1,242 nucleotides of DNA from Escherichia coli (lineage in GTDB: Bacteria; Pseudomonadota; Gammaproteobacteria; Enterobacterales; Enterobacteriaceae). The notes beneath the pieces are model-generated. The model worked only from the letters and a program-made list of their open reading frames with translations. It had not been told where the DNA came from and did no database searches. The stretch lies in the NCBI RefSeq assembly GCF_003334385.1, contig NZ_QOWN01000120.1, one strand, 5' to 3'. The position numbers were made by a program, and so were the translations under genes. Within the stretch, counting starts at the first letter, position 1; every line of letters starts with the position of its first letter. Below, one piece after another: positions 1-1,242 of the stretch.

Positions 1-692
1 ATACTGCCGGGGATCTCAATCACCCCGGACGGCCTGCCGCCATTTCTGAAAAAAGACGTTGAATTTGCCTGAATATGATGCCCCTGCGTGGCCGCCAGCC
101 CGGCAGCATACACCGGCGGCAGCCCCACAAGCGGATGAAAAAAACAGTTAAACCGGTCGTGGATCACTTCCCTGGCAGGCACCGTCACCGCCTCCGTGAT
201 CCCGCAGTTCCGGTCCGGTGTAATGCGATAGAACACCTCGCCGTCATCCGCCACCAGAGGTTCAACCCGGCTCCAGTCCAGAATACGCAGTTCTTTGATC
301 TGCCCCCGGGCATTACGGATTTTCAGCACCACCGTATTGCCGTGACGCAGTTTGGCGTTCAGCCACAGTTCAAAAAACTGGATACGATTCTGCTGTGCAT
401 TGGGACGACGACAGAGACGGGCAATATCCCCCCGGCGCGTTTCCCTGCGTATCCCATGCGCATCCGTCTGCATAAGACGCAGCCGCATTTTGGCGATATC
501 CTGGGATATCAGCGAAATACATGCAAACACCGCATGAAAGGAGAGGACGGCTTCAGGATCGGCTTTCACGCCCTGCTGCCAGGCGCCGGAAAAGGGCTCA
601 GCCACCGCCTGAAACAGGCTGGTCCAGCCCGCCTCTCTTACGTCACGTCCTGATTTCTGGTTTTTTCGGGTTCGCCGTAAAAGGTTCCACAT
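1..692 (-). CDS. Phage portal protein, HK97 family (Pfam Phage_portal PF04860-like); N-terminal ~230 codons, 3' end beyond window left edge
   Basis: Hand translation of the minus strand gives an uninterrupted frame from ATG at 692..690 to position 1: MWNLLRRTRKNQKSGRDVREAGWTSLFQAVAEPFSGAWQQGVKADPEAVLSFHAVFACISLISQDIAKMRLRLMQTDAHGIRRETRRGDIARLCRRPNAQQNRIQFFELWLNAKLRHGNTVVLKIRNARGQIKELRILDWSRVEPLVADDGEVFYRITPDRNCGITEAVTVPAREVIHDRFNCFFHPLVGLPPVYAAGLAATQGHHIQANSTSFFRNGGRPSGVIEIPGS... It contains the motifs I recall as characteristic of HK97-type portals: AVFAC-ISLIS near the N-terminus (cf. AVYAC..LIS) and FFRNGGRPSGV (cf. FFxNGAxPSGV). In-frame TGA lies immediately upstream of the ATG (at 707..709). 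GGAG at 704..701 sits 8 nt upstream of the ATG. Third codon positions are G/C-rich, consistent with coding. Not in the supplied ORF track because there is no stop inside the window. Alternative in-frame start: GTG at 605..603. Confidence 0.8.
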   Translation of the reverse strand, partial: MWNLLRRTRKNQKSGRDVREAGWTSLFQAVAEPFSGAWQQGVKADPEAVLSFHAVFACISLISQDIAKMRLRLMQTDAHGIRRETRRGDIARLCRRPNAQQNRIQFFELWLNAKLRHGNTVVLKIRNARGQIKELRILDWSRVEPLVADDGEVFYRITPDRNCGITEAVTVPAREVIHDRFNCFFHPLVGLPPVYAAGLAATQGHHIQANSTSFFRNGGRPSGVIEIPGS

Positions 693-859
693 TCGCCATG
701 CTCCGCATCACGTTTCTTTTTCTGACCTGCCGGACGTCGCACCGTGATGTACTCCGCCTTTCCCAGGCGAACCAGCACCTCCGCACACGGCTGTGCCACA
801 TCACGGATATCCCCGGCCCGGGCATCATGCGTGCCCTGCAGATATCGGATCTTTGCCAT
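638..859 (-). CDS. Hypothetical small protein (73 aa) between capsid and portal genes; function not assignable from sequence (possibly a head-completion or adaptor-type protein by position only)
   Basis: ORF in track: MAKIRYLQGTHDARAGDIRDVAQPCAEVLVRLGKAEYITVRRPAGQKKKRDAEHGECGTFYGEPEKTRNQDVT. ATG is the first start after an in-frame TAA. G/C-rich third positions and a balanced, charged composition look like real coding, unlike the alternative-frame ORF 643..828. Its 3' end overlaps the proposed portal start by 55 nt (638..692) in a different frame. No family recognised by eye; no evident similarity to lambda gpW. Confidence 0.45.
   Translation of the reverse strand: MAKIRYLQGTHDARAGDIRDVAQPCAEVLVRLGKAEYITVRRPAGQKKKRDAEHGECGTFYGEPEKTRNQDVT
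701..704 (-). promoter_or_regulatory. Candidate Shine-Dalgarno (GGAG) for the portal gene
   Basis: Minus-strand GCGGAGcatggcgaATG: GGAG lies 8 nt upstream of the ATG at 692. Seen directly in sequence; lies inside the coding region of the upstream small ORF. Confidence 0.4.
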
Positions 860-869
860 AACCTGTTAC

Positions 870-887
870 GGGAGGCGCACGCCTCCC
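870..887 (-). promoter_or_regulatory. Perfect inverted repeat GGGAGGCG-ca-CGCCTCCC (GC-rich stem-loop) in the capsid / small-ORF intergenic region
   Basis: Plus 870..877 GGGAGGCG is the exact reverse complement of 880..887 CGCCTCCC; the 2-nt spacer implies about a 7-bp stem with a 4-nt loop in RNA. No U-tract follows it on either strand, so it is not a canonical intrinsic terminator. It lies between an AAGGAGG (896..890) and the small-ORF ATG (859). Confidence 0.5.
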
Positions 888-889
888 GT

Positions 890-896
890 CCTCCTT
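890..896 (-). promoter_or_regulatory. Strong Shine-Dalgarno-like AAGGAGG downstream of the capsid stop
   Basis: Minus-strand TGAgtcTGATAAGGAGG: a perfect 7-nt SD core, but about 30 nt upstream of the small-ORF ATG at 859 in linear sequence, with the hairpin in between. Confidence 0.35.
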
Positions 897-903
897 ATCA
901 GAC

Positions 904-1242
904 TCAGCTGCCGGACGCACTGCCGTAGTTCACTCCGGTGATCACCGCCACCGCCGCGGTACGGCGACGACGCCAGTTGATCCAGCGCTCCGCACGGATG
1001 GCCACGCTGCCTGTCTGGAACATGGAAACCAGCTCCACCGGCGACGGCGTGGTACTGTCGCCGGTCGGCTCAGACTGCATTTCCAGTGATGCCTCGCGGG
1101 ACATATCCACTGCCACGCCGCCGTCATCCGCCAGATAAATATCCGGGGCATTCACCAGCACCAGCTGGTCACCCACGTACTGGGAGACAATCACCGGCAG
1201 CCCCTGGAAGGAGCCACCCAGCAGGGTCATGTCCGGGTATTC
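904..1242 (-). CDS. Major capsid protein, HK97 fold (Pfam Phage_capsid PF05065-like); C-terminal 112 codons, 5' end beyond window right edge
   Basis: Minus-strand frame is open from the window edge (EYPD precedes the internal Met at 1230 that the ORF track used as start) to TGA at 906..904: EYPDMTLLGGSFQGLPVIVSQYVGDQLVLVNAPDIYLADDGGVAVDMSREASLEMQSEPTGDSTTPSPVELVSMFQTGSVAIRAERWINWRRRRTAAVAVITGVNYGSASGS. The pattern GLPV(V/I)..VGD...D..GV.V..SRE...F...VAIRAE.R....R.AAV matches my recollection of the conserved C-terminal region of HK97-type capsid proteins (LWG-PVV...VGDF...DREG..VEVS.E...F..N.VAIRAEERLAL.V.RP.AF). G/C-rich third positions. Family call is by motif memory, not search. Confidence 0.65.
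   Translation of the reverse strand, partial: EYPDMTLLGGSFQGLPVIVSQYVGDQLVLVNAPDIYLADDGGVAVDMSREASLEMQSEPTGDSTTPSPVELVSMFQTGSVAIRAERWINWRRRRTAAVAVITGVNYGSASGS

Follow-up and report, generated by a model that had tools for sequence, protein, structure and literature searches.

Capsid-before-portal gene order in the head module of BP-4795-like lambdoid phages and prophages of Escherichia coli

How should a stretch of phage-like DNA be understood in which a portal gene lies downstream of a major capsid gene, when in phage HK97 the order is large terminase (TerL), portal, protease, capsid? We considered this question for 1,242 nucleotides (nt) of an Escherichia coli genome (assembly GCF_003334385.1, contig NZ_QOWN01000120.1), a stretch referred to here in its whole length as the window. 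The initial annotation of the window rightly observed that its order departs from that of HK97; seen in its wider context, the series is TerL, a protease-capsid fusion, a small open reading frame (ORF) and the portal. The annotation offered two explanations: either the head module is rearranged or mosaic, perhaps belonging to a satellite such as a capsid-forming phage-inducible chromosomal island (cf-PICI), or the capsid call is wrong and the upstream gene is something else, such as a large terminase. We favor neither. With a probability of roughly 0.93, the window comes from within the late (morphogenesis) operon of a temperate lambdoid siphophage or prophage of the BP-4795-like kind, and capsid-before-portal is the fixed, inherited layout of that lineage.

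Six-frame translation yields three coding features on the minus strand and no convincing gene on the plus strand, and the coordinates and residue counts first given for them (a 112-aa capsid end, a 73-aa ORF and a 230-aa portal start near 692) are correct. The 3' end of the major capsid gene (904..1242, minus strand) comprises the last 112 codons and the TGA stop (906..904) of a 645-aa protein; the 112-residue translation, in the frame entering at 1242, ends ...SVAIRAERWINWRRRRTAAVAVITGVNYGSASGS. The 73-aa ORF (859..638, minus strand) starts with ATG. The 5' part of an HK97-family portal gene (1..692, minus strand, ATG at 692..690) supplies its first 230 codons, with a translation that begins MWNLLRRTRKNQKSG..., and runs past base 1. 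The 73-aa ORF and the portal start overlap by 55 nt. When compared to ORF56, ORF57 and ORF58 of phage BP-4795, the three products are identical at 111 of 112 (capsid), all 73 (small ORF) and 225 of 230 (portal) residues.

The reading that the upstream gene is not a capsid gene, and that the true order is therefore canonical, could draw on two observations: just 112 C-terminal capsid residues are visible in the window, and a phmmer search of the 645-aa protein against PDB sequences matched no solved capsid structure. The full-length protein (ORF56) argues strongly against it, as Pfam Phage_capsid (PF05065) matches residues 386-635 at 1e-13, TIGR01554 scores 76.6 bits against a cut-off of 27.5, and PHROGs retrieves phrog_617 ('major head protein', 2e-260). 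Moreover, TerL is a 553-aa gene of its own directly upstream of the capsid gene, which excludes the possibility that the latter is really a terminase. A miscalled capsid gene is thus vanishingly improbable. The portal is equally clear: ORF58 scores 351.7 bits with TIGR01537 (portal_HK97), three times the cut-off of 112, and retrieves portal structures from the PDB (9lbn at 1e-28; the HK97 portal, 8cez/8fql, at 1e-19), and the portal in the window belongs to phrog_2271. Both calls of the initial annotation are therefore borne out by family-model matches (Pfam, TIGRFAM) of the full-length proteins.

Beyond the window, ORF56 also carries a Peptidase_S78 domain (PF04586, residues 48-153, 2e-7; phrog_80, 8e-42), followed by weak coiled-coil-type matches (E > 0.2) across residues 145-255. 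Judging by these domain matches, ORF56 unites an S78 prohead protease, a scaffold of coiled-coil type and a capsid protein of the HK97 fold in a single chain, and its homologue in Pseudomonas phage PAJU2 is already annotated as a 'prohead protease fused capsid protein'. The NCBIfam model for prohead protease/major capsid fusions, NF045541, gives ORF56 53.5 bits against a cut-off of 525; the predicted architecture is like that of NF045541 but the sequence family is a distinct one. Such a fusion protein would assemble the procapsid on the portal and then cut off its own protease and scaffold parts, the cleavage that leaves the mature capsid N-terminus being predicted near residue 340. A literature search retrieved nothing specific on protease-capsid fusion in these phages.

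The window is widespread. Using megablast, it was found to be colinear in 1244 of 5426 complete E. coli genomes (23%), at 90-99.4% identity and in up to seven copies per genome, and 92 phage records carry the whole 1242-nt arrangement. DNA identity over 1242/1242 nt is 98.4% for BP-4795 and 98.2% for phages 2851 and YYZ-2008, with Stx2a_WGPS6 also among the leading matches to Shiga toxin (Stx) phages; 88 IMG/VR contigs are likewise colinear over the full length. These BP-4795-type lambdoid phages, both Stx-converting and non-Stx (Marienburgvirus BP4795, 2851, YYZ-2008, Stx2a_WGPS6 and many O157 and non-O157 prophages) have the same gene order and spacing as the window, and nothing notable differs inside it, 1.2 kb being too short a length from which to judge membership of the whole element.

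The contexts examined are full lambdoid phages of 50-57 kb, and the near-identical copies inspected sit in phages or prophages of 44-65 kb. One E. coli chromosome copy (L002) shows, in order, a Q-type antiterminator, lysis genes, an HNH gene, the small terminase gene (TerS), TerL and the 645-aa 'major capsid protein', continues with the 73-aa ORF, portal, head-tail adaptor, head closure, an HK97-gp10-like gene and the tail terminator, and then has the major tail gene, chaperones, tape measure, tail tip proteins, J and a tail fibre. The BP-4795 neighbourhood is the same series from the lysis genes onward. Lysis genes are present in the E. coli contexts, L/K/I/J tail homologues also lie downstream in near-identical contexts, and tail genes flank the near-identical E. 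coli contexts opened as well as three of eight divergent relatives.

It is against these flanks that a satellite origin has to be weighed. As described in a bioRxiv paper, cf-PICIs are elements of about 15 kb with an int-alpA-rep region, without tail genes and with less than 40% protein identity to any phage, and those of Proteobacteria have the order capsid-protease-portal-connectors followed by hnh-terS-terL. The initial annotation was right to bring up such islands, and Proteobacterial cf-PICIs do place the capsid before the portal. Those of the EcCIEDL933 type share with the window lineage this order, HK97-type head proteins and HNH-TerS-TerL packaging, and the window by itself contains no tail gene, all of which would agree with a cf-PICI, or with some other satellite carrying genes for an HK97-like head of its own. 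In contrast, by the published description only the cf-PICIs combine a size of about 15 kb, int-alpA-rep, a lack of tail genes, hnh-terS-terL after the connectors, and the capsid ahead of the protease. The near-identical copies of the window have tape measure, tail tip, fibre and lysis genes, with the Q-type antiterminator in L002, and their hnh-terS-terL genes lie upstream of the capsid gene rather than downstream of the connectors. Whereas cf-PICI proteins are less than 40% identical to any phage, the window is 98% identical at the DNA level to bona fide Stx phages. No int-alpA-rep island was found in the contexts inspected, and a small element of 10-16 kb with int, alpA and pri/rep, devoid of tail genes and in the cf-PICI gene order, is not what surrounds the near-identical copies. 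Phage records of 18-24 kb that looked satellite-sized are labelled as partial genomes, and they too contain tail genes. We therefore regard a satellite origin as extremely unlikely. Capsid-before-portal order is not diagnostic of capsid-forming satellites, because a whole branch of complete HK97-type phages has the same order.

That branch was followed with tblastn searches using the capsid protein, which reached progressively more distant phages. The same order is found in Salmonella phage FSL SP-016 (77% capsid identity), Pseudomonas phage PAJU2 (48%, with protease and capsid fused), Rhizobium phage RHph_X2_26 (48%), Burkholderia phage vB_FUB47a (40%, with protease and capsid unfused) and Moraxella phage Mcat5 (37%). 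The relatives opened share the series TerS, TerL, protease and capsid (fused or not), one or more small ORFs, portal and head-tail joining genes, and the phages from Salmonella, Pseudomonas and Rhizobium have a phrog_1289 gene after the portal. Three more loci, one from an NCBI genome assembly and two from metagenome contigs (L009, L010 and L011), were reached only via remote homologues of the 73-aa ORF, and they begin with HNH, TerS, TerL, S78/capsid, small ORF and portal as well. The longer two, L009 and L011, go on with connector, head closure, gp10, gp17 and tail tube, and the third, L010, is only 6.4 kb long and breaks off within the gene that follows a second small ORF. PAJU2 and FSL SP-016 share with the window lineage the order TerS-TerL-protease::capsid fusion, small ORF(s), portal, phrog_1289 gene and adaptor; they differ in that portal and next gene are always separate, in capsid identity (48% and 77%, respectively) and, for PAJU2, in a small ORF of another family (phrog_4810).

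The depth of this conservation bears on the remaining possibility, namely that the order is confined to E. coli prophages and arose there by recent rearrangement, at a mosaic joint or as an artefact of assembly. E. coli lambdoid prophages do recombine heavily, and the ENA protein P0081, a capsid-portal chimera, illustrates that misassembly happens at the capsid-portal region. Yet phages of gamma-, beta- and alpha-proteobacteria keep the order at 37-77% capsid identity, metagenomes show it too, a member of the small ORF family lies between capsid and portal in every context opened for that family, and the segment is colinear in 1244 finished genomes. The rearranged or mosaic head first suggested is consequently very unlikely, and since the order is kept across relatives of such divergence, we consider it to be an old lineage architecture and not a recent mosaic. 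As for P0081 itself (1014 aa), its capsid and portal parts are joined at a shared 'LADDG/VADDG' motif, and this chimera was almost certainly created during assembly, at a short repeat between the two genes.

The lineage layout, stated in full, is HNH, TerS, TerL, S78 protease-scaffold-capsid fusion, a hairpin, a small protein resembling the N-terminal domain of ribosomal protein L9, portal, a protein with a coiled coil, repeats and a CBM5/12-like tip, adaptor, head closure, gp10, tail terminator and tail. In HK97 the order is TerS, TerL, portal, protease, capsid, a putative terminator (annotated after gp5) and adaptor. The HK97 head module (gp1-gp7) has in common with this lineage the HNH-dependent TerS/TerL, the S78 protease, the HK97-fold capsid and the HK97-family portal, as well as a hairpin directly after the capsid gene and the downstream series of adaptor, head-closure, gp10 and tail-terminator genes. 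The window lineage differs in having the portal after the capsid, protease and capsid fused into a 645-aa chain, and two extra genes, the L9-N-like small ORF and the fibre-like gene after the portal. The canonical TerL-portal-protease-capsid order was not encountered in the window lineage. By comparison of these gene series, then, capsid-before-portal reflects a relocation, old and by now fixed, through which the portal lies beyond the terminator-like hairpin at the end of the capsid gene and no longer, as in HK97, ahead of the protease.

Several points weigh against the assignment to a BP-4795-like late operon with an inherited layout. The best match of the window to an E. coli chromosome is 99.4%, not 100%, and for this reason the flanking context had to be inferred from near-identical copies. 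The protease match to TIGR01543 reaches 46.5 bits, under the NCBIfam cut-off of 59, although Pfam and PHROGs agree on S78. A literature search found no explicit description of capsid-before-portal order or of its function. Lastly, the post-capsid hairpins of E. coli and Salmonella have no U tract and are for that reason not classical terminators. We would like to note that neither the segment nor the module is new, as the layout could be read from deposited annotations from BP-4795 and PAJU2 onward.

The 73-aa ORF is assigned to phrog_829 (4e-39), a family that immediately precedes the portal in the phages of Salmonella and Moraxella as well, and in the family contexts opened a member was found between the capsid and portal genes. 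A word-indexed protein search retrieved only E. coli 'hypothetical proteins', and a profile search of 1.84 billion representative proteins reached further, to 96 representative clusters of 45-130-aa relatives. These have in common a 40-residue N-terminal domain, MKIKYLK-x7-GD-x3-V-x4-A-x-VLI-x-LG-x-AE, followed by a variable Lys-rich tail; in the window, the last 18 codons of this tail overlap the portal gene. On this pattern of sequence conservation, we take the 73-aa ORF to be a real gene. Its residues 1-40 (859..740, minus strand) form a conserved beta-beta-alpha-beta domain in the AlphaFold2 (AF2) model, with a predicted local distance difference test (pLDDT) score of 89-94. Per Foldseek, nearly all of the top ~40 PDB matches to the 73-aa model are ribosomal protein L9 N-domains (root-mean-square deviation of 1.1 A over 40 residues, 28% identity, probability 1.0, E = 0.085). 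Pfam, even at E <= 10, and NCBIfam yielded no match for the ORF, and this includes PF01281 of L9. The model suggests a ribosomal-L9-N-domain-like fold, and from this fold and the basic tail one might guess at a nucleic-acid-binding role for the protein.

The junction between small ORF and portal varies within the lineage. The small-ORF stop overlaps the portal start by 1 nt in the Salmonella and Moraxella phages and by 4 nt in the Burkholderia phage and L009, a 9-nt gap separates the two in L011, a second small ORF intervenes in L010, and the E. coli 73-aa ORF reaches 18 codons into the portal gene. BLASTP found no similarity between the 73-aa ORF and the Burkholderia small ORF at the same position; it is the position that is conserved there. 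In the window, the sequence reads as a Shine-Dalgarno (SD) motif, GGAG (704..701, minus strand), within the 73-aa ORF and 8 nt 5' of the portal ATG. Translation of the portal would start at this GGAG of its own inside the 73-aa ORF and would be coupled to that ORF.

Between the capsid and the 73-aa ORF lies a hairpin (868..889, minus strand), a perfect 9-bp GC-rich stem (ACGGGAGGC-GUGC-GCCUCCCGU) directly after the capsid stop and without a U tract. The 44-nt spacer that contains it folds at -19.0 kcal/mol, compared to -11.7 for shuffles (z = -2.9). In all ten lineages compared, HK97 among them, a GC-rich hairpin directly follows the capsid gene, no matter where the portal lies; the ten are unrelated in sequence, and their spacers fold better than shuffles, with z from -2.4 to -5.5. 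Between E. coli variants, the base of the stem shows a compensatory A-T to G-C change. The hairpins of the Moraxella and Rhizobium phages, L009 and L011 are classical terminators with U tracts. The HK97 hairpin is at L129 5186-5218, and equivalent spacers are present in L003-L007 and L009-L011.

Immediately 5' of the hairpin in the window, a strong SD-like AAGGAGG (890..896, minus strand) can be read from the sequence. No usable SD for the 73-aa ORF was found at 10 nt or less from its ATG, and the sole strong one is this motif on the far side of the hairpin. The layout of SD, hairpin, 6-9 nt and ATG is also seen in another E. coli variant, in the Salmonella phage FSL SP-016 and in the metagenomic L010, with hairpins of unrelated sequence (window 860-896, minus strand; L006 6936-6972; L010 4597-4635). 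T4 genes 38 and 25 have a hairpin-bridged SD that resembles this arrangement. A 4-codon GTG mini-ORF in the hairpin was considered as a coupling device and dropped, as the second E. coli hairpin variant has no start codon.

A promoter and terminator scan predicted no sigma-70-like promoter and no intrinsic terminator in the window, and the only Rfam match, to sroE, fell short of the threshold (17.8 bits, gathering score 51) and is not regarded as real. Because no promoter or terminator is predicted here and L002 has a Q-type antiterminator gene upstream, the genes from capsid to portal would be read as one late transcript from a Q-antiterminated late promoter. The hairpin would protect or end the capsid message and so delimit a message unit, whereby the capsid protein, needed in about 400 copies, would be made in excess over the 12-copy portal and the neck proteins encoded downstream. 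In this lineage the portal would have joined the 12-copy neck genes beyond the hairpin boundary. The lineage may in this way show how gene order can track copy number, with the capsid ending a hairpin-delimited unit and the portal grouped with the neck genes.

Some 670 nt past the left edge of the window, and about 1.36 kb into the portal gene, we observed a homopolymer of five or six G residues (ATGTTCAGGGGG(G)AT; L001 ~13885-13915, L002 ~21885-21915, L008 ~8750-8780). With a G5 run (ATGTTCAGGGGGAT) the portal ends at 454 aa and the next gene starts on an overlapping ATGA, and with a G6 run the two are fused into an ORF of about 800-900 aa. Both forms are frequent: IMG/VR holds 76 G5 and 41 G6 contigs, and one cluster of fused portals has 6387 members. 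A neighbour-joining tree built from 760 nt of flanking sequence requires at least 8 changes of the G5/G6 state, compared to 31.7 for shuffled tips. The pattern is clade-structured but recurrent, with homopolymer sequencing error and recombination as caveats. In the relatives from Salmonella, Pseudomonas and Rhizobium, the portal and the gene after it stay separate. PGAP/RefSeq calls the L002 portal (20551-23135) a 'frameshifted' pseudogene; both frames are intact and arranged as in FSL SP-016.

The gene after the portal (phrog_1289; L001 13912-15297; also in L002; L006 8492-9535; L004 6054-7058; L005 8712-10133; L009 6543-7163) is often labelled 'portal protein' and is not a portal. Its product has an N-terminal coiled coil, three to five tandem 54-aa repeats in a copy number that varies between records, each made of two 27-aa half-repeats (IPxPxDG...), and a C-terminal domain matching CBM5/12 chitin-binding modules. 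AF2 modelled a minimal version poorly (mean pLDDT 57), with only the C-terminal CBM5/12-like 50 residues usable, and matches of the full-length model to tail fibres were disregarded as weaker. The 'portal protein' label probably spread from fused alleles, and this label and the 'frameshifted portal' calls by PGAP probably reflect a real G5/G6 polymorphism and not decay.

The segment is one of the commonest E. coli prophage head modules and carries little weight as a discovery, and we treat the side observations as modest leads, not findings. A broader proposal that joins them is, in our estimation, unlikely as a whole: a hairpin-bridged SD with coupled portal translation, a G5/G6 switch in the portal, and this phage branch as the origin of cf-PICI heads. 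Under it, the hairpin would bring the distant SD next to the ATG of the small ORF, and portal translation would be coupled to an L9-N-like, possibly RNA-binding, small protein. The G5/G6 tract in E. coli would act as a heritable, recurrent switch for a phase-variable portal appendage, alternating between a 454-aa portal with a separate fibre-like protein and an 800-900-aa portal with a coiled-coil/repeat/CBM5-12 extension. Additionally, the head module of Proteobacterial cf-PICIs could have come from this branch, with the capsid-before-portal order that both share as its mark.

Two plus-strand ORFs, at 75..653 (192 aa) and 521..928 (135 aa), run antisense to the portal and small-ORF genes; unsupported by any search, they have a codon-position GC content similar to that of the sense frames.

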